The notes: generated by a model not told the origin, from the sequence alone. A stretch of 63,803 nucleotides of DNA, filler included, from an uncultured Methanosarcinales archaeon (GCA_964434885.1; 4 parts of 4 records of this genome joined end to end with filler, not necessarily neighbours in it), one strand, 5' to 3'. Positions 1-19,128 are shown, counted from the first letter of the whole stretch. Made by a program: numbers and translations.

Positions 1-448
1 CGCCATTGATCTTATCTCTTTCACTATTGGCAGATTTTAAAGTTAAAGTACCAATTATGTTTCTTAGTGTTGTTCTCGCTAAATTAACAATTTGACGCTG
101 ATATAAATTAACTTGATATTGTGAAGCTTTAACACTTTCTTCATCTGCTTTTACTCTAAAATAAACTTGAGCATCAACTCGCGCATTTAAATTATCATTA
201 GTAATAATTTCTTGTGGTTCAGCATCAACCATTTGTTCAGTAACATTAATTTTGTACATCTTTTCGATGATTGGAATAATCCAATGAAAACCTGGACCGC
301 AGAATTTCTTATATTTACCTAATCTTTCTTTCAATCCTCTTTCAGTTGGTCTAATGATTCTGATTCCTGAAAAGAAAATTATTAAAGCTAAGAAAAGAAC
401 AATCTTTACCCAAGCTGGTAACATAAATATTGTTAATAAAATTCCCAT
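1..448 (-). CDS. SPFH/band 7 (stomatin/prohibitin-like) membrane protein, 3' end beyond the window edge
   Basis: Not in the ORF track. Manual translation from ATG at 448: MGILLTIFMLPAWVKIVLFLALIIFFSGIRIIRPTERGLKERLGKY...PGFHWIIPIIE...QEIITNDNLNARVDAQVYFRV...LARTTLRNIIG, the typical SPFH N-terminus. Confidence 0.9.
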   Translation of the reverse strand, partial: MGILLTIFMLPAWVKIVLFLALIIFFSGIRIIRPTERGLKERLGKYKKFCGPGFHWIIPIIEKMYKINVTEQMVDAEPQEIITNDNLNARVDAQVYFRVKADEESVKASQYQVNLYQRQIVNLARTTLRNIIGTLTLKSANSERDKING

Positions 449-1169: not shown

Positions 1170-1206
1170 CTTGTTGTTTCCAATATTAAAACCATGGTTT
1201 TTTTGT

Positions 1207-2892
1207 TCAGACTTTCTGTTTACACTCAAATATATAAACAAAAGTTCTTCCCTTGGATTTAAATTCATTTTTCAAATGGCAACCTTTTGTCCATTTCCAC
1301 AACTCACTGTCTCGAGGAATTGGGGTATGATCTAAAAGAAACAGGGTACCTCCTCTTTGTGCGCTCAATTTCTTGATTTTTTCCATATACTCCCCATAGA
1401 CTCCAGTATAATAATATTTCTCGTTTTTCCCTTTTAGATCCAAAAGATAATACCTATCTAAATAAAACAAGATTCCAATATTATTAACGTAAAATGGTTT
1501 GACAAATTCCCCCTTATTCTTTTCATAATAGTTTACAAAATCATGGATGGCCTCTCCTGGATCTGGATGGTTTACATGAAACAAGTATTCCTGAACAACA
1601 ACAACATTAAAAGCAAATGAAAACCCAATCAAGATAGTTAAAATATATTTTCTAGTTTTTATATTTTTGAAAACAAAAAACAAGATAATTATGATAAATG
1701 AAATGATATAGGCAACCATTATAGATTTAAAAGAAAGGAAAAATAATGGTCCGGCACTGCCAGTATAAGAAAATAAAAAATCCCAATTGAAACTTAGTAA
1801 TCTTGACAAGTAAACATCCATTAACCTTGGAACATATTCCAAAACCCCTTTGTTCAGCCAATTAAACAACATATAAGACAAAACAAAAACCAAACCCCCC
1901 ACTAACCAATAATCGGTTTTCCATTTTATTCTACTCAAAAAATAACCCCCAACTAAAGACATAGGAACAATTAAATTAATAAAGTATACACTGAAATCTC
2001 CCAATATAGGTATAACGACAATATAAAATAGGAAAACGGTGAAAAACCAAACTAAAGGAAGTTTATTGCCTTTTTCTTTATACCCTTCTATTACGCCAAT
2101 AGTAAATAAGCTTACCAGAAAAGGGGTTGACCAAAACAAAAACATACCAAAACCCATCAAAGAAAAACCAGGTGTTAGTCTTTTGCCAACATTTCCCACA
2201 ACATTATCAACGATGGGCAAATTAGCCAGATGATTCAGTAAAGGAAAAATACTAAAAATTGCCCCTCCAATTAGTAAAATGGGAAGAAATGTCTTAATTT
2301 TATCAAAAAATAATTTCCAATCTCTTTTCTTAAGGATATCTAAAAACTCATAAATTCCCAATACCACTAGCATCAACATCGCACTTTCTCGCAATAAGAG
2401 GGCAATTCCCCAGATTAGTCCAGTAGCTATTAAGAAGAATTTTTTCCCAGTAGCTTTGTAATGAAAATAAACCATAAAAAAAACTAAATAAAGGAAAGCT
2501 AATACCAATGTACTACCGATCTGAAGTGAACCCAAGATGTGGTAAAATGAAAAACCAACAAGGGTGGTTGAAATTATGGCTGCTTTATCATTATTAAATA
2601 ATTTCTTAGACAAAAAAAAGGTGAGAGTCAAATTTAACATTCCAAAAAAAACCATTAATCCCCTAAACTTCCAAATCTCTTCACCGAATGCAAAAGAAAA
2701 CAATAGATTCGTCCAAGAGATCAAAGGAGGTTTAGTGGTTTGTGGATTCAACCAAAAATCTTGAGGATTATACCTACTCAAAAGATGGTCAACTTCATCA
2801 TCATAAAGTGGGCTATTTAAACCTGCCATCCTAATAGTAAGAAAAGCAAAGAAAAGTAAGAAAAGCAAAACCACAATTTTTTTTTTATTCAT
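1207..2892 (-). CDS. GT-C fold membrane glycosyltransferase (ArnT/PMT_2, GT39/83-like)
   Basis: N-terminal TM helix, LYDDE acidic loop, KPPL motif, many TM helices, soluble C-terminal domain. Confidence 0.8.
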   Translation of the reverse strand: MNKKKIVVLLFLLFFAFLTIRMAGLNSPLYDDEVDHLLSRYNPQDFWLNPQTTKPPLISWTNLLFSFAFGEEIWKFRGLMVFFGMLNLTLTFFLSKKLFNNDKAAIISTTLVGFSFYHILGSLQIGSTLVLAFLYLVFFMVYFHYKATGKKFFLIATGLIWGIALLLRESAMLMLVVLGIYEFLDILKKRDWKLFFDKIKTFLPILLIGGAIFSIFPLLNHLANLPIVDNVVGNVGKRLTPGFSLMGFGMFLFWSTPFLVSLFTIGVIEGYKEKGNKLPLVWFFTVFLFYIVVIPILGDFSVYFINLIVPMSLVGGYFLSRIKWKTDYWLVGGLVFVLSYMLFNWLNKGVLEYVPRLMDVYLSRLLSFNWDFLFSYTGSAGPLFFLSFKSIMVAYIISFIIIILFFVFKNIKTRKYILTILIGFSFAFNVVVVQEYLFHVNHPDPGEAIHDFVNYYEKNKGEFVKPFYVNNIGILFYLDRYYLLDLKGKNEKYYYTGVYGEYMEKIKKLSAQRGGTLFLLDHTPIPRDSELWKWTKGCHLKNEFKSKGRTFVYIFECKQKV

Positions 2893-3035
2893 TTTCCATC
2901 TTTATGCTCTTTGTAAAATTAATCCGATCTTTTTTCTCGTAAACAAAACTGGAACTTAATTTTGACTAAGAAGACAAATAATCTATTTATAAATCTTATC
3001 AAACTTAAAGACCAATGATTTGTAGAAAAAATTGA

Positions 3036-3812
3036 TTATTTTTCAAAAACTACCATTATTTCAACACTCTTTTTGGAATTGCAAAATAATTTATAATCCC
3101 ATTTGATGATCAAATCTCTAATTTTAACTAATGTTTTTGGCAATTCATAAAACACAGATTTTTTTATTTTTTCGGCATCCAAGCTCACTTTGTCTTGGTT
3201 TTTAGGATCATTTTTTACAAACCGAGACAATAAACTAGCCAGATAACTGTTTTCAAAAAAGCTAACTAACAAAAAAGGGAAACGCTGTCTTTTGATAACT
3301 TTCAAGCCAATTCTTTTTTCTAACAAATTATAGGTGTAAAGTCTCTCATGACCCCAACCCCAAATACCTATCTTGATTTTTGTGCCCATCCGATTTAAAA
3401 CGTAATTAATTGGGTCGTAGAAAAATGGGAAATTCTTGATAGGAACTGTAACAATTAATTTCCCATTTTTCTTCAGAACTCTAGTTAATTCCTGAATTGC
3501 TAATTGATCACTTTTCAAATGTTCCAAAACCTCAGTACATAATATGCAATCAAAAAAGTTATCTGCAAAAGGTAACTTTTCAATGCTGCCCAAGTGGTAA
3601 GATACATTATCATCCGGATTGAGAATTTTGGCGATTTCAATGTCTCCTTTATTAATATCGATGGAGTGTAGTTGATTTGTTTTTTTCTTCAAATAGATAT
3701 CAAAAAAACCATCCCCACATCCAGCATTTAGTATCCTTTCACATTCTTCAACCTCGTGAGTAACTAAATTCAGTCTAACGAAATAAGTGGGGGCCAATTC
3801 TTTCAATGACAT
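3036..3812 (-). CDS. Class I SAM-dependent methyltransferase
   Basis: ILNAGCGDG motif I, LPFADNFFDCI, EVLEHL, RVLKKNGKL. Confidence 0.9.
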   Translation of the reverse strand: MSLKELAPTYFVRLNLVTHEVEECERILNAGCGDGFFDIYLKKKTNQLHSIDINKGDIEIAKILNPDDNVSYHLGSIEKLPFADNFFDCILCTEVLEHLKSDQLAIQELTRVLKKNGKLIVTVPIKNFPFFYDPINYVLNRMGTKIKIGIWGWGHERLYTYNLLEKRIGLKVIKRQRFPFLLVSFFENSYLASLLSRFVKNDPKNQDKVSLDAEKIKKSVFYELPKTLVKIRDLIIKWDYKLFCNSKKSVEIMVVFEK

Positions 3813-3840
3813 TTTCTATTTGGTATTTTGATAAGAGAGA

Positions 3841-5259
3841 TCATATTTTCAAAATGGTTTTAGCTCCAGCTAAAAGCCTCTTAATATCTTGAATGGAACG
3901 GATGGAAGTTACTTGTTGTAACAAAAACTTAGGTCTGAAATAAAACGAACTGTATGCTTTTTTATGTAATTCAACTAACTCACTTGAAGTCATTCCTTCA
4001 GGTACATAAAGAGGTGAATCCAAAAAATTGAACTCGGGAAACATACGATGCTTCCAGTATTCTTTGGTAAAATTATCTTGTTGACAAGCCCTGGCGTAAT
4101 CTAAGGTTTTAGGTAAAGGTACCATCATTGTAAAGGTAGCAATTTCTGGGTCGAGCTCCTTCGCGAATTTTATCGTATCTAAGATAGTGTTAGGGGTATC
4201 TCCCCATAAACCTACCATAAAATAACCCCTTATTGGAATCTTTGCTTTCTTGGTAACTGTAATTGCTTTTCTAACCAAGTCTTTCGTTATTCCTTTGTTC
4301 ATTTTCTTCAATACTTCATCATTACCAGATTCAATACCATAAGCAATAAAGTTGCAACCATTTGCTTTCATGGTTCTTAATAAGTCTAAATCTACCCGGT
4401 CAACTCGACTAGAACAAGACCAAGTGAGATTGAGGTTTTCCTGTTTGAGAAGGTGGCAAAATTCAATTACTCTTTCTCGAAATAAGGTAAAGGTCTCATC
4501 CCAAATAGATAGCTCTTCAATCCCATATTCTTTAATTAAATATTTAATCTCTGCCATGACTCGATCTAAACTGAAATTCCTGACTTTATGCCCCGTGATA
4601 TCTTTACTGCAGTAACTACATTGATAAGGGCATCCACGACTAGTTAAAATGGCCATGTCTTTTCTGGCACTGCTTTTCCTAGCTTCACTGCTTTTGTAAA
4701 GCTCCCAATTAAACAAGTGTCGGGCCGGGAAAGGTAAAAGATTAATATTTTCAATATTCTTTCTAGGACCATTGAACAGTACTTTTCCCGATTGATCACG
4801 ATAATAAATACCTAAGATTGTACTCATATCTGAGTCTTGATTGTCTAGCTTCTGACAAAGTTCTGCCGTAGTAATTTCTCCTTCCCCTACAACCACATAA
4901 TCAATAAATGGTTTTTCCATTGCTTCCAAAGGTAGAGCAGTGGCATGACAACCACCAAAAACGAGCGGCTTATCTGGAAGTTTTTGTTTCAAAAATTGAG
5001 CAAATTCGTAGGCTCTTAAAACAAAACTAGTAAGAGTGTGAATTCCTAACAAATCATATTCTTCAGCTAACTTGCTGATCTCTTCCCAACTGTCTTTTTC
5101 CACAAATCCGTCCCAAATCTTAACTTCGTGACCTTCCTGCTCTAAATAGGCAGCTAAATAACCCAAACCCAAAGGAGGAATTCTACTGGCAGTTTGTTTG
5201 GCACTGTCAGTAAAAAGTTCTTCTTCTTTCATTGGTGGATTCATCAAAAGGACTTTCAT
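3841..5259 (-). CDS. Cobalamin-binding radical SAM protein
   Basis: N-terminal B12-binding domain (PPLGLGYLAAYL, GGCHAT, GEGE) plus SRGCPYQCSYC CxxxCxxC motif, GIESG. Confidence 0.92.
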   Translation of the reverse strand: MKVLLMNPPMKEEELFTDSAKQTASRIPPLGLGYLAAYLEQEGHEVKIWDGFVEKDSWEEISKLAEEYDLLGIHTLTSFVLRAYEFAQFLKQKLPDKPLVFGGCHATALPLEAMEKPFIDYVVVGEGEITTAELCQKLDNQDSDMSTILGIYYRDQSGKVLFNGPRKNIENINLLPFPARHLFNWELYKSSEARKSSARKDMAILTSRGCPYQCSYCSKDITGHKVRNFSLDRVMAEIKYLIKEYGIEELSIWDETFTLFRERVIEFCHLLKQENLNLTWSCSSRVDRVDLDLLRTMKANGCNFIAYGIESGNDEVLKKMNKGITKDLVRKAITVTKKAKIPIRGYFMVGLWGDTPNTILDTIKFAKELDPEIATFTMMVPLPKTLDYARACQQDNFTKEYWKHRMFPEFNFLDSPLYVPEGMTSSELVELHKKAYSSFYFRPKFLLQQVTSIRSIQDIKRLLAGAKTILKI

Positions 5260-5283
5260 TTTTTGATCTCCGGTTTCATCGTA

Positions 5284-6006
5284 TTATCTAATCTTTCGGA
5301 GTTTGGTTTTAAGATTTAGTAAGTAAGGGATTATGCTTAACTCAGTTCGAAATCTTAAGGCAGATTTTGCTCCCTCACTCCAAATCACAGGTATTTCCTT
5401 GATTTTGTATTTTTTCTTCTGGGCAATTAATAACAATTCCGTATCCCAAGTCATTTTTCTCTTTAATTGATAATCGTAACCAAGATAGCGTAGTAAATCT
5501 ACTATCACATCTTTTCGAAATGCTTTGAAGCCGCACTCATGATCATTAATTTTGGAATTAAAGTATAATTTCACAAAATGTTTGTAACAAAAACTAATTA
5601 ATCTTCGAGATAGTAAGCGTTTGGCAACAGTACCATCTATATGTCGGCTACCAGTAGCAATATCGTATCCAGCCTCAACCATTTGGATCAAAGTTGGAAT
5701 GTTCTTCAAGTCGGTTGCTAAATCAGCATCCATAAACATAACAATATCACCATTTGCTTTTTTGAACGATTCTGCTAGGTTTTCCCTACGGCTCGGTCCG
5801 TTTTCATAACGTAAATGCGTCAAGTTTGGAAAACCTTCAACTACGTTGTTAACTAAATGGGGTGTCTGATCTGTGGAAGAATCATCAACAAAAAAAACTT
5901 CAAAGTCCCAATGCAAATCCCCAATAACATTCATGACTTTTGTTAAGTTTTCTTCAATAATTTTTTCCTCATTATAACCTGGAATAAACAAAGAAACTAA
6001 AGTCAT
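5284..6006 (-). CDS. GT2 glycosyltransferase (polyprenol-phosphate sugar synthase-like)
   Basis: IPGYNEE, VDDSSTD, MDADL DxD motif, GSR, DHECGFKAF. Confidence 0.88.
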   Translation of the reverse strand: MTLVSLFIPGYNEEKIIEENLTKVMNVIGDLHWDFEVFFVDDSSTDQTPHLVNNVVEGFPNLTHLRYENGPSRRENLAESFKKANGDIVMFMDADLATDLKNIPTLIQMVEAGYDIATGSRHIDGTVAKRLLSRRLISFCYKHFVKLYFNSKINDHECGFKAFRKDVIVDLLRYLGYDYQLKRKMTWDTELLLIAQKKKYKIKEIPVIWSEGAKSALRFRTELSIIPYLLNLKTKLRKIR

Positions 6007-6008
6007 TT

Positions 6009-6959
6009 TTAAATTGCCCCTTTAAAATAATCTATAGTTTTACTTAGACCTTCTTCTACTGAAACTAAAGGTGCCCAATTTAATTTTTCATTAGCTAAAC
6101 TAATGTCTGGTCTCCTTCTTGTTGGATCATCTTTTGGTAATTCCTTAAAAATTATTTGGCTAGAACTCCCGGTAGTCGCAAGAATTTTTTTTGCTAATTC
6201 TAACATGCTAATTTCATGGGGGTTGCCCAAATTAACAGGTCCAATAAAATTTTCTTGTTCCATCATTCTAATCATCCCTTCAATCAAATCTGAAACATAT
6301 TGGAAGCTCCTGGTTTGATTTCCACTCCCATATATTGTAATCGGCTCATTTCTTAATGCTTGGGTAATAAAATTAGATACAACCCGACCATCATCAAGAG
6401 CCATCCTAGGTCCATAAGTATTGAAAATTCTTACAATTCGGATATCCACTTTATTCTGTCGATGATAATCCATACATGACGCTTCTGCTACCCTCTTGCC
6501 TTCATCATAACAACTCCTTATCCCAATGGGATTGACATTCCCCCAGTGGTGTTCTTGTTGGGGGTGTTCCAAAGGATCACCATAAACTTCGGATGTTGAA
6601 GCTTGAAGAATTCTTGCTTTTGTTCTTTTAGCAAGACCAAGCATATTCAACATACCAAAAGTATTACATTTGATAGTTTTGATTGGATTATATTGGTAAT
6701 GTACTGGAGAAGCAGGACAAGCAAGATTATATATTTGATCAATTTCAATAAATAAAGGTCGAGTAATATCATGTCGAAGAATCTCAAAATTGGGGTTGTT
6801 TTTTAAATGTTTAATATTGTCTATTGCACCAGTAAAGAAATTATCTACGCAAATAACATGGTTTCCTCTGTTTAATAATTCTCCACATAAATGACTACCT
6901 ATAAAACCAGCCCCCCCTGTTACAAGGACATTCTTCCTACTTTTTTGCATAATCAACAA
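6009..6959 (-). CDS. uxs: UDP-glucuronate decarboxylase (UDP-xylose synthase)
   Basis: [63 protein letters not shown]. Confidence 0.93.
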
Positions 6960-6991
6960 ACCTCCTCACCCTTTTTAAATTTTAAGTAAAA

Positions 6992-8665
6992 TTAACTACT
7001 ATTTTTTTCTTGACTCTTCTTAAATAAGAAAATAACTGGCATTTTCCTTTTACCTTGTTGAGTATTAACTTCTCTTTCAACTACTTTGACTAATTGGAAA
7101 CCTAAACTCTGAAAATAATTTAAACTGTTCTGTGTGATTGGAAAATACCATTTTGGTTGGGTGTACTCCCAAATATCAATTTCTAAATAGACATCGCTTT
7201 TTTGTAATAATTTTTTTAAGTCCTCTTCGAAATACTTTTTTCCTTTTACTGGGTCTTCTGGATCATATCTGCAATCTCTCTTTGAACAATTATTATCTCT
7301 TCCTTGATATCTCAAAGCTCTTAAATACCATAAACTTCCCGTCTTATTAGCTATTGGGTAATCTGGTGGACCCCCATATTCTCTTTCAATAAAAGGTCTT
7401 TGCATTCTTGGAGAACCAACAAAAATAGGCGTTCCATCGGGAACATTTTCTTTTAACCATCTTCCTGCTTCGACATGTCCTGCATAACTATTTGACTTAG
7501 AACTAGTCAAAGAATCACCAATGGTGTAAAAATTCCAACAAACAAAAACTGCAAAAATAAGAACTGCTCCTTTCCCAACATAATTTCTTATTTTTTTCTG
7601 ACCAATAAACAAAATTAAATACTTACTAAATTCTATTAAACCAAATGTAGCCAATATAATTCCCATTGGAAGTAGAGGTAAAATATACCTATCTTCTGGC
7701 ATCCGAACTATCAATTCAAATGCAACCCAATAGAATATAAAAAAAACTAAATTTAGGTAGTACTCTTTTTTTTTATATACAATAATAAATAGTATTCCTA
7801 AAACTATTGGTATTAGTAGGTACCAAGAAAAAATCCAGACAAAATGATTAGTTGCATTTAAGCCAGGGTCATTTAAACCATCCAAACGTATCCATTCATT
7901 CAAATACTTTTTCAAAAAACGACCACCAAAAACCAAACTTCCTAAAACAATAGAAGAAACAGGAACTAACCAAGAAACCAAGATTGCTTTGCTTTTAATT
8001 ATCTCTTTTCTTTTAAAAATGACTAAATAAATTAAAAAAGCTGTAAAGAAAATTATACTTTGTCTCTTTGTTAAAAATAATCCCAAAAATACAAGTGCCG
8101 AACCAAATCCCCAAAATAAATTTTTTTTCTTTTCTAATTTGACTAAGCAATATAATACAATAACAACCATAGCAACTAAAGGCCCATCTGCTAGCAATCT
8201 TACACCATAAAACCAGAACAAATGATGGAAAGCAAGCAAAGCAGCTGCAATTAAACCAGTGAATTTATTTTTTAACTCATAACCAAGAAGATACATAAAA
8301 ATAATACTAGTTATTCCAAATAGAACTGCAGTGATTTTTCCAGCAACTAAAAAATCTCTAGTGAATGTATAAAATAATACCGTCAAAGTTTGAATAGTGG
8401 CATAATCTCCCATTAAATACTCACTAGTGAAAATATAAAATGGATCTTTGGTGGCTTTAATGGTAAACCATAAATGAACTGCTGCATCATTCCAAATACT
8501 TTCTTGACCAATATATTTTAAACGGATTAAAAAAGCTAAAAATAAAACCACTAGAAAAAGAATATTGTATTTATTTTTAAAAAAAGAAATGGTTTTCTCT
8601 TTGAAAGTATTATTCTTAGAACTTCTTTCTTTCTTTTCTTTCACTTCTTTTTCTTCTTCTTCCAA
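6992..8665 (-). CDS. GT-C fold membrane glycosyltransferase (ArnT/PMT_2-like)
   Basis: FLIRL...SIWNDAAVH loop, multiple TM helices, DRYILP motif, AGRWLKENVP C-terminal domain. Confidence 0.8.
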   Translation of the reverse strand: MEEEEKEVKEKKERSSKNNTFKEKTISFFKNKYNILFLVVLFLAFLIRLKYIGQESIWNDAAVHLWFTIKATKDPFYIFTSEYLMGDYATIQTLTVLFYTFTRDFLVAGKITAVLFGITSIIFMYLLGYELKNKFTGLIAAALLAFHHLFWFYGVRLLADGPLVAMVVIVLYCLVKLEKKKNLFWGFGSALVFLGLFLTKRQSIIFFTAFLIYLVIFKRKEIIKSKAILVSWLVPVSSIVLGSLVFGGRFLKKYLNEWIRLDGLNDPGLNATNHFVWIFSWYLLIPIVLGILFIIVYKKKEYYLNLVFFIFYWVAFELIVRMPEDRYILPLLPMGIILATFGLIEFSKYLILFIGQKKIRNYVGKGAVLIFAVFVCWNFYTIGDSLTSSKSNSYAGHVEAGRWLKENVPDGTPIFVGSPRMQRPFIEREYGGPPDYPIANKTGSLWYLRALRYQGRDNNCSKRDCRYDPEDPVKGKKYFEEDLKKLLQKSDVYLEIDIWEYTQPKWYFPITQNSLNYFQSLGFQLVKVVEREVNTQQGKRKMPVIFLFKKSQEKNSS

Positions 8666-9286: not shown

Positions 9287-9312
9287 AAGTAAAATTGAAA
9301 TTTTGAAGGAAA

Positions 9313-10437
9313 ATGAAGAATGTTATAATGATTCTACTTGATGGAACAAGACCAGATAGGATTAACTTGTCTAAAGAATTATCCTCAATTGTTAAACAAG
9401 GTGTATATTTTCCCAATATGATTACTGCTGCCCCCTACACCATCGCATCTAATCATGCCACCTTATCAGGAATTTATCCAAATAGAAATGGTGTTAATGC
9501 ATATCATTGCATGTTTAAATTTAAAAAAAACCTTTGCAAAACATTACCAGAGTATCTTAAAGAAAAAAATTACCAAACTATAGCAGATGTTGGAAATGAT
9601 TCTGTTATTCCCCATCAAGGATTCAATGAAATCTCAGTTTATGATGTGCATAAAGATGATTTGATCAAAAGGCATAAAAAAATAATCAAAAATATTTCTA
9701 AAAGAAAACCTTTCTTCATATTCTACCATTATGATAAAATAGTTGCTAACCTAATAATCGATGTGGCAAAAAAATACACTGATTTTTCGGAAGAATATTT
9801 TAATAACAAGGAGAAAAATATCCAAAGATACAATCGTTATTTTACAGAGGCAGGAATTTATGCAAAGGCCCTATTAGACTTTCTTAAATCTGAAGAACTT
9901 CTAGAAGATACCATCGTGATCTTTTTTTCAGACCACGGAATTAGTAATGGAGAGAGAAGAGGTGAGAAAATGTATGGTAGTTTTTTATATGACTACACAA
10001 TTAAAGTTTTTTCAATAATATTATCTCAGGAAGAAACTAGTAAAACTGTGATCCATCAAACCAGAACCATAGATCTCATGCCCACTATTTTGGATTTATT
10101 GAATATCCCTTTAGATCATAACTTTGAAAAAGTTCAAGGAGAAAGCTTAATCCCATTAATAAAAAATGAGGAAGAAAAAAGTAGAATTGCTTTTTGTGAA
10201 ACAGGGGGTTTGAAAGGGCCTTGGCCTTCCCCCAATAAACCCAATGTAAAGGCAATTAGAACAGAGAATTGGAAATTAATCTATAATCTTACCCCTAATA
10301 CTAAAGAATTATATAACTTAAAAAATGATCCTTCAGAAAAGAACAATCTTATAGGCAAAGGATTTACTAAAGAGCGAGAATTGTGGGACCTTTTAAAAAA
10401 GGAAGATGAAATAGAATGGATTCCTGAACAGATCTAA
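9313..10437 (+). CDS. Alkaline-phosphatase-superfamily (sulfatase-like) hydrolase/transferase with Thr nucleophile
   Basis: NVIMILLDGTRPD, PYTIASNHATLSG, FFSDHG, IDLMPTILDLL, WKLIY, ELYNLKNDPSE. Confidence 0.85.
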   Translation: MKNVIMILLDGTRPDRINLSKELSSIVKQGVYFPNMITAAPYTIASNHATLSGIYPNRNGVNAYHCMFKFKKNLCKTLPEYLKEKNYQTIADVGNDSVIPHQGFNEISVYDVHKDDLIKRHKKIIKNISKRKPFFIFYHYDKIVANLIIDVAKKYTDFSEEYFNNKEKNIQRYNRYFTEAGIYAKALLDFLKSEELLEDTIVIFFSDHGISNGERRGEKMYGSFLYDYTIKVFSIILSQEETSKTVIHQTRTIDLMPTILDLLNIPLDHNFEKVQGESLIPLIKNEEEKSRIAFCETGGLKGPWPSPNKPNVKAIRTENWKLIYNLTPNTKELYNLKNDPSEKNNLIGKGFTKERELWDLLKKEDEIEWIPEQI

Positions 10438-10492
10438 CTAATAATTAACTTTATAAAGCTAATAAAAAGTAATAAATTAATTGACAAGATAA

Positions 10493-11527
10493 GTGAAAGA
10501 AAGTTTGATAAAAAATATGAGATTATTTTCATTCATTAAAAAAAGAATTGAGAGAAGTTCTTTAAAAGAATTTTTGTTAAAAATAATTCAAATTAATGTA
10601 GTTTATGCGTTCTATTCAAAACTTTATTTTAATAAAGCAAAAAATGTTGTTCCTCCAACACTTAAGCCAAAAGCAATTTTTGTTGAAACTTTTAATGTTT
10701 GTAATGCCAGATGCACTATGTGCCCATATCTAAAAATGACAAGACAAAAGGTAAGGATGGATATAGATCTTTTTTGTAAAATTATAGATGATGCTGAAAG
10801 GGAAGGAATTAAAAGAGTAGGATTACACTTTTATAATGAACCTTTAATGGATTCGCATCTCTTCAAAAAAATAGCTTATGTTAAAAAGAAAGGTTTAGAC
10901 GTTTTGTTTTTTTCCAATGGCTCATTAATGGACAAAGAAATTGCTGGCAAAATTTTGTCATCTCAAGTTGATGAAATTTACTTTAGTGTGGATGGTGCGA
11001 GCAAGAAAACTTATGAAAAAATACGAGTTGGATTAAATTATGAGAAAACCAGGGAAAATATTAGGTATTTAAAAAAAGAGCGAGATAGAAAAAATCTAAA
11101 GAAACCAAAAATGTACATTAATTTCGTAATCCAAAAATCTAATCTTTCTGAACAGGTTTCTCTTCTGGAATCCTGGAATTCTTTTGTGGACAAAATAAAT
11201 TGGGGTTACATCGATAATAGAAACGACCATAAAAAATGGAGACAAAAGAAATTAAAGCCTTTCCCTTGTAGGAGATTGTGGGATGGATTACAAGTAATGA
11301 GTGATGGACGCGTTGCTCTTTGTTGTGTTGATTATAATGGTCAAGTAATTATTGGAGACTTAAAAAAACAAACAATTTCAGATATTTGGCAAGGACAAAT
11401 TTTTACTAAAATTAAAGAGTTACATTTAAATGGGCAAGGAGATAAAATTGGTTTGTGCAAAAATTGTTCTCAGTTATACGAAGAAAGTGCTTTTTCTTGG
11501 TGGTTTGAAAGAGATATAACTTTATGA
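10493..11527 (+). CDS. Radical SAM protein with SPASM/twitch domain
   Basis: CNARCTMCP motif; C-terminal PCRRLW...DGRVALCCVD...IGDL...CKNC. Confidence 0.9.
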   Translation: MKESLIKNMRLFSFIKKRIERSSLKEFLLKIIQINVVYAFYSKLYFNKAKNVVPPTLKPKAIFVETFNVCNARCTMCPYLKMTRQKVRMDIDLFCKIIDDAEREGIKRVGLHFYNEPLMDSHLFKKIAYVKKKGLDVLFFSNGSLMDKEIAGKILSSQVDEIYFSVDGASKKTYEKIRVGLNYEKTRENIRYLKKERDRKNLKKPKMYINFVIQKSNLSEQVSLLESWNSFVDKINWGYIDNRNDHKKWRQKKLKPFPCRRLWDGLQVMSDGRVALCCVDYNGQVIIGDLKKQTISDIWQGQIFTKIKELHLNGQGDKIGLCKNCSQLYEESAFSWWFERDITL

Positions 11528-11549
11528 ACTTGTCAAATTAAATCTGACA

Positions 11550-11571
11550 CCACTAGTGAACATACTAGTGG
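11550..11571. terminator. Inverted repeat between convergent radical SAM genes (possible terminator hairpin)
   Basis: CCACTAGT-gaacat-ACTAGTGG perfect 8-bp stem. Confidence 0.4.
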
Positions 11572-11583
11572 AAAAATAAGATT

Positions 11584-12996
11584 TTAATTACTTGGCTTCA
11601 TTTTTAATGCTTTGTAATATCCAGATTTAACAATCATCCATTTCTTTAAAAAGTTTTTTTTGTTATTACTAGACAAAAAATCACCAACAGTTTGTTTTAA
11701 TTTATTACTAGAATAAACTTTTCCAAACTCAAAATAATTATTTAGTTCTTTTGCAGTTAAATTCTTATTTGTAAAATAGGAGTGGAATTGGTCAAAGTTA
11801 TTCCAATCAACCTTTTCTTCATCAATAACTCCTTTTTCTACAGCTTCTTGCCACAATACTGAATGAGGATAAGGAGTCAACATAAAAAAAGAGGCCCGGT
11901 ATAAATTTAATCTTCTAGCTAGTTTTATTGTTTTGACAATAGTTTGTGGAGTATCATTAGGAAATCCAACAATAAAATTCCCCCTTACTTTGATTCCAGC
12001 CTCTTTGGCTAATTTAACTGCGTTTTCGATTTGAGGAATTGTAATTTGTTTTTTAATATCACGTAATATGCCCTCATCCCCGCTTTCAATACCAAAAGCT
12101 ATTAATTCACATCCTGCAGTTTTTAGTTTTTTATACATTTCAAGATTAGCTGAATCAACTCTCCCTTGAATTATGAATTTGAGTTTAAGATTTGTTTCTT
12201 TAAGAGCATCACAAAATTGAATAACCCTGTTAGCATTAATTGTAAAATTATCATCAATAAACTGAAAATATTTAACACCATACTTCTTGTTAACTAATTT
12301 TATTTCTTGAATAATGTTATCTATTGAACGGAAATTTATCTTTTTAAATGAATGATGGTTTTTACTATTGTAACAGTAAGTACAAGAAAAAGGACATCCC
12401 CTAGAACTAAGGATATTTGAAAATTTTTGTCCTGTCGAAAGTGAACGATAACGATTCAAAGAAAGTAATCCTCTTGCGGGAAAAGGTATATCATCTAAAT
12501 TCTTGATAGGCTGACGAGGAGGATTTAATTTAATTTCACCTGCTTCTCTATAAGCAATACCATTAATGCCCACATAAGGGCCTTTTTTCTGTATTGCATC
12601 AACAAGTTCTAAGATAGTTTCTTCTCCTTCCCCATAAACTAAAAAATCAGCAGGAGATTCTTTTAAAGCTCTTTTGGGCATAGAAGATGGATGTTTACCC
12701 CCAATAATTATTTTAAGATCTAATTCATTTTTTATATCTTTTATTATCCTATTTGCACCAGAGAAAGAAGGAGTAGTACAAGAGACTCCCACGATATCAC
12801 AATTAAATTTTTTACATAATTTAACAATCTTATTTTTACTATATCCCTCAACATCAAAATCTTTAATTATTACTTTGTGATCATGATTCATTAATATGGA
12901 GGCGAGATAAGCAATACTTAATGGTTCTTGACCAAACATTAAAGGATTTTTAAATCTCTGAAGATTTGTTGATGCATTAATTAAGATGATGTTCAT
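11584..12996 (-). CDS. Cobalamin-binding radical SAM protein
   Basis: PLSIAYLAS, GGKHPS, GEGE, SRGCPFSCTYC, GIESG; same family as 3841..5259. Confidence 0.92.
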   Translation of the reverse strand: MNIILINASTNLQRFKNPLMFGQEPLSIAYLASILMNHDHKVIIKDFDVEGYSKNKIVKLCKKFNCDIVGVSCTTPSFSGANRIIKDIKNELDLKIIIGGKHPSSMPKRALKESPADFLVYGEGEETILELVDAIQKKGPYVGINGIAYREAGEIKLNPPRQPIKNLDDIPFPARGLLSLNRYRSLSTGQKFSNILSSRGCPFSCTYCYNSKNHHSFKKINFRSIDNIIQEIKLVNKKYGVKYFQFIDDNFTINANRVIQFCDALKETNLKLKFIIQGRVDSANLEMYKKLKTAGCELIAFGIESGDEGILRDIKKQITIPQIENAVKLAKEAGIKVRGNFIVGFPNDTPQTIVKTIKLARRLNLYRASFFMLTPYPHSVLWQEAVEKGVIDEEKVDWNNFDQFHSYFTNKNLTAKELNNYFEFGKVYSSNKLKQTVGDFLSSNNKKNFLKKWMIVKSGYYKALKMKPSN

Positions 12997-13149
12997 ATGT
13001 TTACCATTAATTTTTTATTTTTCGTTGGTAGTGCAGTATTTATAAATCTTATTTAACATTGTACTTTCTCAGTATATTTAAATACTTCTAATATAACCGA
13101 ATACAAAATATGGTGGTTTAAGTTCATGATAATATTAAATCATTTGTTT

Positions 13150-13182
13150 CATTACCTTTAAAAACAAATTATCTAAAGCAAA
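13150..13182 (+). promoter_or_regulatory. TATA-box promoter of the GT4 gene (leaderless or short leader)
   Basis: CCTTTAAAAA ending about 23 nt upstream of the ATG at 13187. Confidence 0.6.
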
Positions 13183-13186
13183 GTAG

Positions 13187-14362
13187 ATGAATATATGTTA
13201 TGTTAATCCAACCAATAATATTCGGAGACCGATTGCAGAATTATCTAATATTTTAGCTAAAGAAGGACATAAAATTACAATCATGTATCCAGAAAGTAAA
13301 GCTTGTCCAACTAAAAACTGGGTGGCTAATGAAGCAATTAAAAATGGCTTGATTAAGTTAGTGCCAATCAAATCTTGGTATTTCGCACCATTAAGATATT
13401 CTTTTCCTAATTTATTGCAATTGATTAAAGAGACTAAGAAAATTTATCGGAGCAATCACAAAGTTCATATTTGGGAGTATTATTATCCTCTGTCAATAGT
13501 TCCAATCTTATTAAGTATGTTTAGCAAAAAAAAGAGAGGAAAAACCATCCTCACTACTGATGGTTTTGTTGGTTATTCTTATTTACCTAAAGAACCAAAA
13601 TGGTTAGTTCCAGCATTTAAGATTTATACTTGGTGTTTTGGTCGTTGGTTATTTAAAATTCCGAGAACACTTACAACTTATGGAAAAGCCATGGTTCCTT
13701 TTGCCAGAAAAACAAGATTCAGTTTAAATAAACTAAATGTTATTTCTACAGGAATTCATTTGGAAAGATTTCAAAATGTTGATTCCGATAAAGTTAATGA
13801 TTTGAAAAAGGAATTCAAAATTGATGAAGATGAGAAAGTAATTTTGTTTGTGGGAATGTTAACCGAAAGAAAAGGTATTAATCAAGTTATTGCAGTTAGT
13901 AAAAGATTATTACAAGAAGGACATCAGATTAAAACAATATTGGTTGGTGATGCTCATGGGGATAATATCTACCAAAAATTAGTTGATTCTAAATATAAAG
14001 AAAAAATTATCTTTGCTGGGGGAAGAAAAGAAATTCCAGAATTTATGAAATTGGGAGATATCTTGTTTTTGCCTTCAGAAGGGGAAGGTTTACCTGGGGT
14101 AGTAATGGAAGCAATGGCTTCTGGATTGCCAATAGTGGCAACTAAAGAAGGTTGTACTCCAGATTTGATTGAAGATGGGAAAGAAGGTTTTTTGATAGAA
14201 ATGAATAATCGAAAAGAAGGTTATTATTTTGCTTTGAAGACATTGTTGGAGGATATTGAATTGAGGAAAAGCTTCGCTAAGAAAGGGTTAGAAAAGATTA
14301 AGAATTTTGAATGGGGAAGAGTGAAAGAAAAATATACTAAATTATATACTAATTCAAAGTAA
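13187..14362 (+). CDS. GT4 family glycosyltransferase
   Basis: ILFVGMLTERKG, LPSEGEGLPGVVMEAMASGLPIVAT. Confidence 0.92.
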   Translation: MNICYVNPTNNIRRPIAELSNILAKEGHKITIMYPESKACPTKNWVANEAIKNGLIKLVPIKSWYFAPLRYSFPNLLQLIKETKKIYRSNHKVHIWEYYYPLSIVPILLSMFSKKKRGKTILTTDGFVGYSYLPKEPKWLVPAFKIYTWCFGRWLFKIPRTLTTYGKAMVPFARKTRFSLNKLNVISTGIHLERFQNVDSDKVNDLKKEFKIDEDEKVILFVGMLTERKGINQVIAVSKRLLQEGHQIKTILVGDAHGDNIYQKLVDSKYKEKIIFAGGRKEIPEFMKLGDILFLPSEGEGLPGVVMEAMASGLPIVATKEGCTPDLIEDGKEGFLIEMNNRKEGYYFALKTLLEDIELRKSFAKKGLEKIKNFEWGRVKEKYTKLYTNSK

Positions 14363-16232
14363 CGTCCATCTCTTGTAAAATATCTTTAAGATTATCCAAA
14401 AAAGAAATGATGTCTTTCTCATTAATATCTCCCATCACAGATAATCTAAATGAATTCATTTTTCCAATTTTTCCAGGATAAATAGTAAATCCTTTAGTAT
14501 AAAGTTTATTATGTAACTGATTAAAATCAAAGTTTGGTGATGTGGGATAAAGAATAGTGATCAAAATCTTAGATTCTTCTTCTCTTTTTGTCAGAATTTT
14601 TAGACCTATCTCTTTAATCCCTTCTCTTAAAATTTGCCAATTTTTTGTATAACGAACAACTCTATTTTGATACCCTTCTACTAAAAACTCTTCAATTGCT
14701 TTCTTTAAAGCATATAATGTTTGTACTGGTGGAGTAAATCTCATCTGGTTTTTATTAATAAAGTATTCATATTGGTCGTACAAACTTAAATAGAATGATC
14801 GACGCGGGTAATGTTGGATTTTCTCTAGTTCTGTTTTTTTACAGATAACAAAACAGACTCCAGCCATCCCTTGAATACATTTGTTAGAAGTAGACATCAT
14901 AAAATCAATATTAAAATCATTAATATTAAGAGGTACTCCAGCAAAACTTGAAATCGTGTCAACAATGAATAATTTATTGTAATTTTTTACTATTTTTCCA
15001 ACTTCTTTAATGGGATTAAGTAATCCAGTTGTGGTTTCATGATGAATCATGGCAACACAAACAATTTCTGAATCTAACTTTAATTGTTCTTCTATCAGAT
15101 GTAAATCAGGTAAGCTATCCCACTCAAACTTCAATTCAATACATTCAATTTGATAAGCACGAGCAATTTTAGCAATTCTTTCCCCATAGGCCCCATTATT
15201 AATCACTAGAATTTTCTTGCCAGATGGAACAACTGAATTAATGGTGGCATCCATTGCAGCAGTGCCAGATCCCCCAAATAAAACACAAGCATATTGTTCG
15301 TCTCCCCCTGCAATTTGGATTAAATCATTTGAAATAGAATGCATTAACTCCCCAAATTCTTTTTCTCGTGGACAGATATCAGGAACAACTTGAGCAAATT
15401 TTACTGTATCTGTAGTGGTTGCCGGTCCAGGATTTAAAAGAATATTTCTTTGGATACTAGGAAAATTTAATCTATCTGTCGCAGGACTTATTTTTTCTTT
15501 TTTAATCTTGGGATAAATTTCTTCTTTAGCACGTTTTAAATCGTCTTCATTGTCAATCTCAATCCAATTCAAATCATTGCAAAATTGAGTATGGACAACA
15601 TGTCCTAATTTAGTAGTTGAAAAAACACATTCTTCATAATGGTATTGTTTCTCATTCTGAGCATAATCTTGTTCTGCCTGAGCAAAAAGAATAGGTAAAT
15701 ACTCTTTTGAATATTTAGTTATTCCAACTAATGCTCCACATGCTTTTTGTTTTTCTTCCTCGGAAATATTTTTACCCAAATTGATTAATTTGTTATTTTC
15801 ATCAGCACAGATATAAACATCATCTCCAGAATTAAGTAAATCGGCAACTAAAATAACATTGGGGTAGGGAGATTCTAAAATAGTTTGGATGGCTTTTTTA
15901 TCATATAATAAATCTGATTCTAAAACAACAATATCATCATCAACAAGACCTTGAAGAAGAGACAAAGAATACATACTGCCTGTTGATTCGTATTCAGTGG
16001 AATGAACATATTTTAACTGAAGACCTTGGTAGTTATGGCCAAATTTATCTCGAATAGAACCAGCATAAAAACCAGTAACAATAATCACTTCTTTTATCCC
16101 ATTTTCTTTAAGATTTTCTAAAGATCTTTCTAAAAGAGTTTTGCCATTTACTTCAATTAAACCCTTTGGTAATGATTCGGTCATGGGACGTAATCTAATT
16201 CCCATGCCTGCGGCCAGAATAACTGCTTTCAT
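14349..16232 (-). CDS. Fusion of a phosphonyl/phosphocholine-type cytidylyltransferase (PntC/LicC-like) and 2-aminoethylphosphonate aminotransferase (PhnW/AepZ-like)
   Basis: N-terminal MKAVILAAGMGIRL..PKGL, ESDLLYD, WIEIDNEDDL; C-terminal ILLNPGPATT, HHETTTGLLNP, VDTISSFAG, STSNKCIQG (PLP Lys), MRFTPP, GFTIYPGK. Start placed at ATG 16232. Confidence 0.9.
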   Translation of the reverse strand: MKAVILAAGMGIRLRPMTESLPKGLIEVNGKTLLERSLENLKENGIKEVIIVTGFYAGSIRDKFGHNYQGLQLKYVHSTEYESTGSMYSLSLLQGLVDDDIVVLESDLLYDKKAIQTILESPYPNVILVADLLNSGDDVYICADENNKLINLGKNISEEEKQKACGALVGITKYSKEYLPILFAQAEQDYAQNEKQYHYEECVFSTTKLGHVVHTQFCNDLNWIEIDNEDDLKRAKEEIYPKIKKEKISPATDRLNFPSIQRNILLNPGPATTTDTVKFAQVVPDICPREKEFGELMHSISNDLIQIAGGDEQYACVLFGGSGTAAMDATINSVVPSGKKILVINNGAYGERIAKIARAYQIECIELKFEWDSLPDLHLIEEQLKLDSEIVCVAMIHHETTTGLLNPIKEVGKIVKNYNKLFIVDTISSFAGVPLNINDFNIDFMMSTSNKCIQGMAGVCFVICKKTELEKIQHYPRRSFYLSLYDQYEYFINKNQMRFTPPVQTLYALKKAIEEFLVEGYQNRVVRYTKNWQILREGIKEIGLKILTKREEESKILITILYPTSPNFDFNQLHNKLYTKGFTIYPGKIGKMNSFRLSVMGDINEKDIISFLDNLKDILQEMDVTLN

Positions 16233-16317
16233 GAAATCCAATCAACAAAATAATAGTTTATATAAATTATGGAATTGGGGGCTTCATCGGGAATTAAGAA
16301 ATAACAATTAAATGAAT

Positions 16318-17386
16318 TCATTTCAAATTGTTCATGAATGCTTTTTTGTTTTCTACAGGTGTAGTAGTTGGTCGACCTAAATCTGCTCGGGCACCTTTCT
16401 CTACTTTAACAATCAACATGTAAGGGCCCTCTTGGCTAGTTAAATCAGCCATGGCAGTTCTTAGATCTACACTAGTTTCAACTGTTCTTGAACCAGCATA
16501 ACCATTAGCAACAGCTAATTGTTCAAAGTTAACATTATCAGCAGTAGTTGGTTGACCCCCAGTCGATTCATAAGCACCATTATCAAAAACAACATGCATC
16601 AAATTCTTAGGTTTATAATGGCCAATAGTTGATAATGAACCCATCCCCATGATAATTGCCCCATCCCCATCTAAAGCATAAATTTTTCGATCTGGTTTCT
16701 GTAAGGCAATTTCTCCAGCCATTGAGCTAACACAACCCATTGAACCAACCATTAAAAAATCTTTTTCATGACCTTGACCTAACTTTTCTCGGTACTCAAA
16801 AATTTCTCTAGATGCTTTACCAGTAGTTGATACTACTACATCCATTGGTTGTAAGGCGTCAAGCACAATTTTAATAGCATCTTCACGTTTCATATCATAA
16901 CTTTGTTTAATATTGCTTTGTCCAGTATATTTTTCAAATAAACCTTTACGCACAACTAAAGCAAAAGATTCTCCAGTAGAATCAATATGTTCTCTAGCTT
17001 CAGCAATAACTTTTTCTATCTCGCCCATCTCTCCAGGTAAGAGTTTATACTTAATTCCCAGTACATCTAATTGAGGTAAAGTTATTTTACCCATCTGAAC
17101 GTGTTGGGGTTCGTCTTTCTTACCAGGTTCACCACGCCAACCAACCATTAAAAGTAAAGGAATATCATAGACTTCAGGTGAAGTCAATGAAGTTAATGGG
17201 TTAATGGTGTTACCTAATCCAGAATTTTGCATGTAAACCACTCCAGTGTTCCCGGTAGCTACATGATATCCAGCTGCCCAAGCGACTGCATCACGTTCAA
17301 TAGCAGCAATTCGGTGAGTTAATCCTTCTTCTCCTCGTTCATCTAAAAAACTCATCCATGCCTTAAATGTACTATCTGGGACACCA
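16318..17386 (-). CDS. aepY: Phosphonopyruvate decarboxylase, 5' end cut by the contig end
   Basis: Frame extends to the gap as GVPDSTFKAW; VYMQNSGLGNTINPLTSL, GWRGEPGKKDEPQH, STTGKASRE, VGSMG, DGDGA ThDP motif, ESTGGQPT, LGRPTTTP. Confidence 0.93.
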
Positions 17387-17486
17387 NNNNNNNNNNNNNN
17401 NNNNNNNNNNNNNNNNNNNNNNNNNNNNNNTTAATTAATTAANNNNNNNNNNNNNNNNNNNNNNNNNNNNNNNNNNNNNNNNNNNN
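17387..17486. other. Artificial contig spacer
   Basis: 44 N + TTAATTAATTAA (stops in all six frames) + 44 N. Confidence 0.97.
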
Positions 17487-18326: not shown

Positions 18327-19121
18327 ATGAAACTTACTAAAGCTATATTGCTAATTATTTGTTTGATTATTGCTAGTTCTTTTGTATTTGGGGCATCTGA
18401 AATTTGTGCCAACTTACTTGATGATGATGGTGATAAAAAAACAGATTGTCAAGACCCAGATTGTGCTGGTTTTGTCTACAACAACCCCACTACTAACCCT
18501 CTGACTGTGGGTTCCGAAGTAATTTGTGATGGTAAAACAAGTCAAATTTGCGGAGTAGGTTCAAATCCGTTGGGAAGCATCAGAAATATTTTCTTTAAGT
18601 TTGACGCATTATGTATTAAAGAAGAAAATAAGATTAAATGGCTACAATGTAATCCATTTGAAGATGTTGAAGGGCCAGGAAACACAGCTATTGGTTTACC
18701 AAACAACACAATTATCAATAAAAAATACCTCTGTCAGGATTGGAATGGTTGGGAATCTTGGATTGAATGTGGAGATGGCAAAGATAAAAATAATGGTGGA
18801 TTATATCGGAAAAATGGAGCCATCATGGGAGATTACATTTGTAAAAATAATGAATGGAAAAAGAAGTGTGACAAATTTGTGTGGATTGATGATGGAGATT
18901 GTTGCATAGATAAAAAAGATAAAGGAACATTTGAGGGATTTATGACTAACACTTATGCTACTATTTTAAAGTTTTTGCAATTAAAAACTGATGAAGGAAA
19001 TGCTGCAGCTTTAATATCTTTAGCTTTAGCCAATAGTCAATTAAGATTGTTTCATGAATCTTATGGTAAGGATAACAAAGGGAATGTTTGCGGTATGAGC
19101 AAGACAGCATCGGCAAGGTGA
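18327..19121 (+). CDS. Secreted Cys-rich protein
   Basis: Signal peptide; EICANLLDDDGDKKTDCQDPDC Ca-binding-like Cys motif; repeated Y.C...W..C units; GAAGGTGG RBS. Confidence 0.75.
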   Translation: MKLTKAILLIICLIIASSFVFGASEICANLLDDDGDKKTDCQDPDCAGFVYNNPTTNPLTVGSEVICDGKTSQICGVGSNPLGSIRNIFFKFDALCIKEENKIKWLQCNPFEDVEGPGNTAIGLPNNTIINKKYLCQDWNGWESWIECGDGKDKNNGGLYRKNGAIMGDYICKNNEWKKKCDKFVWIDDGDCCIDKKDKGTFEGFMTNTYATILKFLQLKTDEGNAAALISLALANSQLRLFHESYGKDNKGNVCGMSKTASAR

Positions 19122-19128
19122 TTGGCAA

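Follow-up and report, generated by a model that had tools for sequence, protein, structure and literature searches.

Among the described systems closest to the locus reported here is the Pnt pathway of Treponema denticola, whose fusion protein Tde1415 joins PntC, the cytidylyltransferase for 2-aminoethylphosphonate (AEP), to an AEP transaminase (AEPT) and has been solved in the apo form and with CMP-AEP (PDB 6PD1/6PD2; PMC6697681). According to that article, Glu104 and Glu196 of Tde1415 contact the AEP amine, Asp occurs at these positions in LicC, the PntC signature is GxG(T/S)Rx4-8PK, and the EDKxxxxxNS motif is the criterion for phosphoenolpyruvate (PEP) mutase (PepM, or Ppm). By the same account, two thirds of phosphonate clusters contain nucleotidyltransferases, and 33% of Ppm proteins are fused to PF12804 (Rice et al. 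2019, PMC6697681). Li and Horsman (2022) described clusters in which a PntC fused to Ppm occurs alongside a second PntC, and counted 12 archaeal Ppm neighbourhoods in RefSeq, with Ppm in 1.6% of archaeal genomes (PMC8942020). In the main text of Lockwood et al. (2022), the archaeal producers are Thaumarchaeota or Crenarchaeota, and in supplementary file 11 pepM and aepY are recorded for three Woesearchaeota genomes and one from Pacearchaeota (PMC9381506). No main-text account of phosphonate synthesis in DPANN archaea was found in literature searches, the supplement of Lockwood et al. being covered for files 1-12. This study analyzed a 63.8 kb stretch of DNA from a small archaeal genome (hereafter, the window), which carries a phosphonopyruvate decarboxylase gene (ppd) and a pntC-aepT fusion gene. 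Together with a pepM gene located on another contig, these genes very probably form a complete operon for CMP-AEP biosynthesis that was split by an assembly break.

Four contigs (C16, C17, C18, and C23) from a single genome bin were artificially joined to make up the window, and the phosphonate genes occupy the right end of C16 (window 1-17386). Because the linker is artificial, the genes flanking it, such as those of C17 to the right of 17387-17486, are not genomic neighbours. The bin, G000, totals 1,069,348 bases on 66 contigs, with completeness rated at 92% and contamination at 0%, and has a depth of approximately 5-6 fold in the runs containing it (four runs compared). The central features are as follows:

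14349..16241, minus strand: pntC-aepT fusion, 630 amino acids (aa); NTP_transferase and class-V aminotransferase domains, Tde1415 alignment
16318..17386, minus strand: ppd, thiamine diphosphate (TPP) enzyme, 5' end cut by the end of C16; TIGR03297, Pfam TPP_enzyme_N/_C
17387-17486, 34099-34198, and 49822-49921, no strand: artificial linker, 44 N + TTAATTAATTAA + 44 N; N blocks located by script

The initial annotation of the window had read the two genes as a phosphonopyruvate decarboxylase followed by a cytidylyltransferase/AEP transaminase fusion of the T. denticola type, and had placed pepM outside the window, probably beyond the contig break. Our searches bore out all of these assignments. 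In the fusion protein, the AEP cytidylyltransferase domain spans approximately residues 1-250 and the AEP:pyruvate transaminase domain approximately residues 265-630. The NTP_transferase domain of Pfam matched residues 5-122 with 55.6 bits, and the AEP aminotransferase equivalog TIGR03301 matched residues 267-622 with 431.7 bits, above its cut-off of 360.8. The protein aligned end to end with 6PD1/6PD2 (487.8 bits, E 4e-145, query 5-624 / chain 4-611); residues 5-250 of the PntC domain were paired with Tde1415 residues 4-245, and E108 and E203 fell on Glu104 and Glu196. A stretch of S-N-K is identical in the two proteins, and its lysine is presumably the one that binds pyridoxal phosphate (PLP). 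The comparison supports the assignment of the N-terminal domain as a PntC-type AEP cytidylyltransferase. The ATG at 16232 (residue 4) is a more likely start codon than the listed TTG at 16241.

The ppd open reading frame (ORF) was listed as 16318-17355, and the frame remains open up to base 17386. This base, which had been taken as the end of the gene, is in fact the end of contig C16, with the linker next to it, and the gene therefore lacks approximately 20 N-terminal codons in the window. With its N-terminus missing, the product scored 443.7 bits against TIGR03297, the NCBIfam equivalog for phosphonopyruvate decarboxylase (cut-off 312.5), and matched TPP_enzyme_N and TPP_enzyme_C of Pfam with 34.6 and 58.6 bits. 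A GDG-x25-DN stretch was read in the translation, and we take it to be the thiamine diphosphate motif.

A search of the whole bin with a PEP mutase model returned one gene, C43:5872-7545 (locus L121), which lies off the window. Its product of 557 aa comprises a PepM domain followed by a MobA-like nucleotidyltransferase (NT) domain, and the gene is hereafter called pepM-NT. PF13714 matched residues 10-256 with 187.5 bits (cut-off 31.5). The motif EDKKFPKQNS fits EDKxxxxxNS and was invariant in all eight aligned kin. The motif ends in N-S in the solved PepMs 5UNC and 1M1B and in T-S in the phosphonopyruvate hydrolase (PPH) 2DUA.

We then compared the ends of C43 and C16. The stop codon of pepM-NT overlaps the ATG of ppd (C43:7538) by 8 bases, so that the two genes are translationally coupled, and the last 82 bases of C43 hold the missing ppd start, with the first 27 codons at C43:7538-7618. 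The peptide encoded by these codons aligned with the Ppd N-termini of relatives. No exact overlap of contig ends was found; a search allowing mismatches revealed that the last 23 bases of C43 and the first 23 of the reverse-complemented C16 are identical at 22 positions, whereas among the remaining 131 contig ends the closest had 12 mismatches. The single mismatch (Leu -> Val) may reflect strain variation. Both the assembly break and this mismatch lie in the conserved GVPDSTFK region of Ppd. In G462, a genome of the same family, one contig carries PepM-NT, Ppd, NT-AEPT (637 aa), and a divergent GT4 gene in the same order, with a pair of EamA genes nearby. The identities to G462 were 80%/61% for the two domains of PepM-NT, 52% for Ppd, 60%/78% for NT-AEPT, 67% for GT4 (window 13187-14362), and 43-49% for the small EamA pair. 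This order is the one predicted for C43 joined to C16, which points to an operon of pepM-NT, ppd, and pntC-aepT. The pepM-ppd order also occurs in G174, a genome of the same order, and in many bacterial loci.

Several observations weigh against this interpretation. The PepM equivalog TIGR02320 scored 318.3 bits in the six-frame search and 315.9 bits for the ORF, just below its cut-off of 319.55, and the PPH model TIGR02321 scored 324.8 bits, which is higher than the PepM model but below its own cut-off of 374.4. Because the PepM score is below the curated cut-off, the mutase call rests on the motif and on the gene context. The PntC signature of the window fusion reads G-M-G-I-R-x8-P-K, in which Gly, Arg, and Pro-Lys are kept and Ile replaces the consensus Thr/Ser. 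The nucleotidyltransferase domain fused to PepM (NT1, C43:6750-7545) lacks GxG(T/S)R...PK: the first Gly is not followed by Gly-x-Arg, Pro-Lys is absent, and Tyr occupies the place of Glu104. This loss and the Tyr were common to all 10 aligned clade members, and Pro-Lys was kept in three of four fusions of the other lineage, in two of three aligned stand-alone or AEPT-fused copies, and in the PntC domain of the window. The conserved NT1 domain may be non-catalytic or act differently. No match to a LicD-type phosphotransferase was found in the genome (92% complete), and the only CDP-alcohol phosphotransferase in the genome is unlinked, on C7, so that neither enzyme type offers a linked candidate for the use of CMP-AEP. 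Finally, the C43-C16 junction was not seen within a single read or contig; a 1748-base contig of run X1 extends 1322 bases past the end of C16. Short high-depth pieces and the 'joints' at 16067-16090, 16917-16937, and 16199-16232 (21-34 matching letters) were taken as conserved motifs from other organisms.

On the basis of these findings, we propose the following pathway, in which the catalytic activities of PepM, Ppd, AEPT, and PntC are predicted from homology. The genome contains an enolase as a source of PEP (525 bits on C18, window ~35820-37046; C18:1622-2848, minus strand). One TGA lies within the stretch matched by enolase. The PepM domain of the PepM-NT fusion would convert PEP into phosphonopyruvate, and Ppd would decarboxylate it to phosphonoacetaldehyde, thereby pulling the unfavourable equilibrium forward. 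Transamination of phosphonoacetaldehyde to AEP would then fall to the PLP domain at the C-terminus of the 630-aa fusion, and the N-terminal PntC domain of the same protein would combine AEP and CTP into CMP-AEP. In the last step, a transferase would attach AEP to an acceptor of the envelope, which could be a sugar, a lipid, or a protein.

The surroundings of the operon on C16, which we read as a locus for surface glycans, were examined for candidates for this last step and for further tailoring. The phosphonate genes had been described as lying next to glycosyltransferases, which agrees with the GT4 gene at 13187-14362 and with more glycan genes at 1207-8665. The features are as follows (SAM, S-adenosylmethionine; NDP, nucleoside diphosphate):

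13187..14362, plus strand: GT4 glycosyltransferase; Glycos_transf_1 110.9 bits; convergent with pntC-aepT, 14-base overlap
11584..12996, minus strand: B12-binding radical SAM enzyme of no curated subfamily; B12-binding 75.3 bits, Radical_SAM 102.9 bits
10493..11527, plus strand: radical SAM/SPASM protein; Radical_SAM 61.4 bits, SPASM 52.6 bits
9313..10437, plus strand: alkaline-phosphatase-superfamily enzyme, sulfatase/NPP-like; Sulfatase 88.1 bits, Phosphodiest 42.7 bits
6992-8665, minus strand: second PMT_2 (GT-C) transferase, glycan module (1207..8665); Pfam
6009-6959, minus strand: NDP-sugar epimerase/dehydratase, glycan module; Pfam
5284-6006, minus strand: GT2, glycan module; Pfam
3841-5259, minus strand: second B12 radical SAM enzyme, glycan module; Pfam
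3036-3812, minus strand: methyltransferase, glycan module; Pfam
1207-2892, minus strand: PMT_2 (GT-C) transferase, glycan module; Pfam

The position of GT4 beside NT-AEPT is kept in G462. NCBIfam searches of the glycan module gave weak ArnC, dolichyl-phosphate hexose transferase, and ArnA-like matches, all below cut-offs. The locus also contains methyltransferases, an AsnB-like amidotransferase (C43:845-2641), and two EamA proteins of 120 aa, one of which is weakly ArnE/ArnF-like (33.6/30.1 bits, far under the cut-offs). The alkaline-phosphatase-superfamily gene at 9313-10437 is the single PF00884 match in the genome, and a homologue with 46% identity lies beside pepM in G167. Its translation reads Thr at the position of the sulfatase Cys/Ser nucleophile, in a T-I-A-S-N motif (NPP-like), and the protein is a candidate phosphonyl transferase or CMP-phosphonate esterase. 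The radical SAM/SPASM gene that follows it resembles a maturase, yet there is no Cys/Ser at that position to mature. A gene similar to this radical SAM/SPASM gene is present in the phosphonate cluster of G174. From the GT4, the GT2, the two GT-C/PMT_2 enzymes, the ArnE/F-like pair, and the alkaline-phosphatase-superfamily enzyme, we infer that AEP would be transferred to an acceptor of the envelope, and AEP probably serves for decoration of the cell surface.

An extension of this interpretation is that AEP undergoes additional modification, either ahead of CMP activation or following it, which would place an undescribed AEP derivative on the surface. The nearby B12 radical SAM enzymes could methylate AEP on C or P, or class-I methyltransferases could methylate it on N. 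Fom3, which methylates CMP-hydroxyethylphosphonate, is a precedent. Two B12 radical SAM enzymes, one SPASM radical SAM enzyme, and several SAM methyltransferases are encoded on C16 and C43, and a B12 radical SAM gene lies at most 10 kb from pepM in 8 of 15 kin loci (L027, L028, L030, L032, L034, L035, and L037 of 12, plus L136 of 3). In addition, a 1059-aa protein of G238 (L027:3795-6974) joins a B12 radical SAM domain to AEPT (417.8 bits against TIGR03301) and a class-I methyltransferase, and this fusion hints at a methylated AEP derivative. A CDP-alcohol phosphotransferase gene adjoins the G238 fusion. The window itself offers less for this extension: its radical SAM genes lie outside the operon, separated from it by the opposite-strand GT4 gene, they encode enzymes only 27-35% identical to the kin copies, and the closest syntenic cluster, that of G462 (10.5 kb examined), contains no B12 radical SAM gene. 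The best NCBIfam matches of the enzyme at 11584-12996 were BchE (203.9), HpnJ (188.3), and the PhpK family (141.1), all below their cut-offs. The window enzymes likewise fell short of the phosphonate methylase cut-offs (PhpK family, 141-148 vs 600; Sden_1168 family, 134-148 vs 575), and a PDB search with the protein at 11584-12996 returned distant matches only (AprD4 at 84 bits, OxsB, TokK, and CysS) and no phosphonate methylase. The enzyme at 11584-12996 is a possible tailoring candidate. Modification of AEP is thus conceivable, at perhaps one chance among several, but is not indicated for the window genome in particular.

Whether AEP would end on a glycan or on a lipid is likewise inferred from gene content. 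That CMP-AEP supplies a phosphonolipid head group for archaeal lipids, instead of decorating a glycan or glycoprotein, appears somewhat less likely still. The phosphonate clusters of G238 and G174 contain CDP-alcohol phosphotransferase genes, one such gene is present in the window genome, and in the large bacterial 'Burkholderiales_CDP-OH' group two PntCs accompany phospholipid genes (PMC8942020). However, the gene of the window genome lies on C7, outside the locus, and both the locus and its G462 counterpart are rich in sugar-modifying genes (GT4, GT2, PMT_2, and epimerase); G462 also carries a DegT aminotransferase, a deacetylase, and an AsnB-like gene.

Two further clusters of relatives show other gene combinations. 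In G368, a 1164-aa protein (L136:15739-19233) combines an iron alcohol dehydrogenase, a PF01467 cytidylyltransferase, PntC, and AEPT; the PntC and AEPT parts are 58% and 75% identical to the window fusion. This megafusion would serve both a hydroxyethylphosphonate and an AEP branch. The cluster of G174 (L028:12330-17115), which holds the nearest PepM relative from beyond the family, lacks AEPT. In its place it carries a phosphonoacetaldehyde-dehydrogenase-like gene (498.5 bits against a cut-off of 635.65), together with genes for an AsnB-like amidotransferase, a nucleotidyltransferase, and a CDP-alcohol phosphotransferase, and the cluster may lead to a phosphonoacetate-derived head group. A broader and speculative proposal, to which we give little weight, is that a Woesearchaeota-type DPANN lineage decorates its envelopes with CMP-activated phosphonates, with a cluster in approximately 1 in 17 sampled genomes. 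The head group would possibly be undescribed: AEP here and hydroxyethylphosphonate or phosphonoacetate derivatives in kin, possibly methylated by radical SAM enzymes. Attachment would do without LicD and rely on a transferase of the alkaline-phosphatase superfamily or of the CDP-alcohol type, with Arn-like polyprenol-linked sugars as acceptors. If this proposal is true, the G368 and G238 megafusions would be Rosetta-stone evidence for new tailoring steps.

To describe the distribution of these genes, we searched sampled genomes of the same phylum, order, and family. The PepM model matched 14 of 301 genomes of the order at E<=1e-30, 11 of them above the cut-off, and 26 of 401 genomes of the phylum, of which 20 scored above the cut-off, 3 reached 314-318 bits, and 3 were weak. 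In the family, 8 of 41 genomes matched, G000 excluded, and the PepM part of the C43 protein was matched in 6 of 24 family genomes. Whole-protein tallies of 26/41 and 34/41 consisted mostly of generic nucleotidyltransferase matches and were excluded as pathway counts. AEPT was rarer than PepM, being above the cut-off in 3 of the 301 genomes of the order (G000, G025, and G238); two more scored 316-333 bits, and one of these, G216, encodes a 621-aa NT-AEPT-like fusion. The AEPT tally of 31/301 at E<=1e-40 counts generic aminotransferases as well, along with three unpublished genomes, and supports no claim.

A scan of one genome per prokaryote species yielded 589 relatives among 600 pattern matches, and the best 80 of the 589 were kept. 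In a quick IQ-TREE analysis of 95 PepM domains, the gene of the window genome stood beside that of G174 (SH-aLRT 99), followed by 'archaeon UBA543'. The starred clade that contains it held 23 rows, 18 of them bacterial (Chloroflexota, Planctomycetota, Myxococcota, and others). Most family mates carried a different PepM type of 432 aa, located in the other half of the tree, and a third type was present in two kin. The mixing of three PepM lineages with bacteria suggests that pepM entered the archaeal group more than once or was exchanged with bacteria, with no direction implied. Within the operon, Ppd is 51-52% identical to its counterparts in G462 and G368 (window 16318-17386 compared with L137:7639-8766 and L136:11682-12809), whereas PepM and AEPT of the same operon are 75-80% identical. 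This difference suggests that ppd was replaced inside an otherwise conserved operon.

The bacterial company of this PepM also bears on the possibility that C16 and C43 are bacterial DNA mis-binned in an archaeal genome. Two genes at the far end of C16 were considered as lineage markers:

2..448, minus strand: Band_7/SPFH gene; lineage marker for the contig
532-1125: hypothetical gene without match in 40 relatives

The hypothetical gene was uninformative as a marker, having no match in the 40 relatives, and the Band_7 gene was used instead. Its product is 80%, 78%, and 76% identical to those of the same-family genomes G011, G010, and G013, which ties C16 to the archaeal lineage. Mis-binning would be in keeping with the 18 bacterial rows of the PepM clade, with the fragmentation of the bin (66 contigs) at a depth of only ~5-6 fold, and with the unmatched hypothetical gene. 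It is nevertheless very improbable: beyond the Band_7 identities, the nearest PepM relatives are order and family mates (G174, 74%; G368 and G462, 80%), and the contig that bears the G368 cluster is 428 kb long, in a genome of 1.2 Mb and 8 contigs. The composition of both contigs is typical of the bin, with C16 at rank 14 and C43 at rank 27 among 57 contigs (>=5 kb) by tetranucleotide distance from the genome mean; this evidence is weak because binning itself uses composition.

The reduced-genome archaeal host proposed in the initial annotation was supported, and the composition check that it had suggested is in keeping with the placement of the contigs. The bin of 1.07 Mb contains an archaeal small-subunit (SSU) ribosomal RNA fragment (838 bits, best of the SSU clan), and the kin clusters lie on long contigs (428 kb in G368, 392 kb in G238, and 413-780 kb in G012/G052/G009). 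In the PepM tree, same-family genomes paired with records titled Nanoarchaeia, Nanoarchaeota, or Woesearchaeota. The host appears to be a small DPANN archaeon of the Woesearchaeota type.

A catabolic role, in which a PhnW-type transaminase acts on environmental AEP and a phosphonopyruvate hydrolase stands in place of the mutase, is hardly credible. It was raised by the PPH model outscoring the PepM model (324.8 vs 315.9 bits for the ORF, both under their cut-offs), and the PDB matches of the PepM domain are close (302 bits for PepM 5UNC and 298 bits for PPH 2DUA). Hydrolase identity was rejected on the discriminating motif residue, which is Asn as in PepM and not Thr as in PPH, and on the translational coupling of pepM-NT to ppd, whose product makes the mutase reaction productive. 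Furthermore, the phosphonatase PhnX had no match in the genome (bin 92% complete), and the fusion of the transaminase to an AEP-activating cytidylyltransferase would be senseless for degradation. The weakest alternative, raised in the initial annotation, is that the decarboxylase is the sulfopyruvate decarboxylase ComDE of coenzyme M synthesis, and it can be dismissed with near certainty: the TPP enzyme family is shared and partial matches exist to the beta (ComE, 132.7 bits, cut-off 221.5) and alpha (ComD, 65.2 bits, cut-off 147.95) subunits, but both fall below their cut-offs, the Ppd equivalog wins, and the gene lies between pepM and aepT.

Elsewhere in the window, C17 carries a row of four cysteine-rich proteins (18327-23224; 264, 469, 551, and 357 aa). 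Pfam matched nothing in them beyond a Stig1-like segment of the third. A signal peptide or membrane anchor is present in at least three, and they are probably surface proteins.

A complete CMP-AEP operon in this genome would mean that an archaeon with a reduced genome, and probably dependent on a host, devotes 5 kb or more to making a C-P compound for its surface. The operon is not a one-off, since related cassettes occur in ~5-6% of the sampled order and phylum genomes, in three gene lineages common with bacteria. The novelty suggested at the outset was overstated: PepM is present in ~5-6% of the sampled order and phylum genomes, both fusions are frequent in bacteria, and Woesearchaeota with pepM and aepY had already been tabulated. 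The findings place DPANN archaea among the candidate producers of marine phosphonates and provide a defined, clonable set of three genes for archaeal AEP and CMP-AEP synthesis. Known chemistry is thereby confirmed in a new host without raising a new question, and the general interest lies in the CMP-AEP transferase, its acceptor, and the role of the signature-less domain fused to PepM.

Compared with the described systems, the locus most closely resembles the Tde1415/Pnt pathway (PMC6697681): the two-domain architecture (630 vs 624 aa), the full-length alignment at 487.8 bits, the conserved AEP-amine glutamates, and the sequence of Ppm, Ppd, and AEPT, then CMP-AEP, are the same. It differs in its archaeal host of 1.07 Mb, the lack of any LicD-like transferase found, the Ile in place of Thr/Ser, and an activity that is predicted. 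The Ppm-PF12804 fusions with a second PntC in the cluster, as in 'Burkholderiales_CDP-OH' (PMC8942020 and PMC6697681), are comparable to the combination of PepM-NT and PntC; in contrast, the window locus has no phospholipid genes or oxygenase, and its PepM-fused domain, like that of the whole clade, lacks GxG(T/S)R...PK.

In fosfomycin synthesis, Fom1 likewise fuses a nucleotidyltransferase to PepM, but its transferase domain is N-terminal and belongs to family PF01467 (PMC6697681). A cytidylylated phosphonate intermediate and nearby B12 radical SAM genes (Fom3 in the fosfomycin case) are further points of resemblance. The window locus has no reductase, epoxidase, or FomD, and orthology of its radical SAM enzymes to a phosphonate methylase is unsupported. 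The same two fusions as in the window genome occur in a 12.9 kb locus (L047) of an uncultured Nannocystaceae metagenome-assembled genome (Myxococcota), which encodes PepM-NT, Ppd, and a 622-aa NT-AEPT; the identities are only 55%/36%, 37%, and 32%/41%, the NT-AEPT gene is on the opposite strand, and the host is bacterial. Among archaea, the marine Thaumarchaeota (Nitrosopumilus maritimus) carry pepM-ppd with nucleotidyltransferase, glycosyltransferase, and arylsulfatase-like neighbours, which have been read as decoration of a surface polymer (Lockwood et al. 2022, PMC9381506). Their route proceeds from hydroxyethylphosphonate to methylphosphonate through MpnS, whereas the route predicted here leads through AEPT to AEP in another archaeal phylum. 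The chemistry is known from bacteria, in which both fusions are common; the unusual part is the host.

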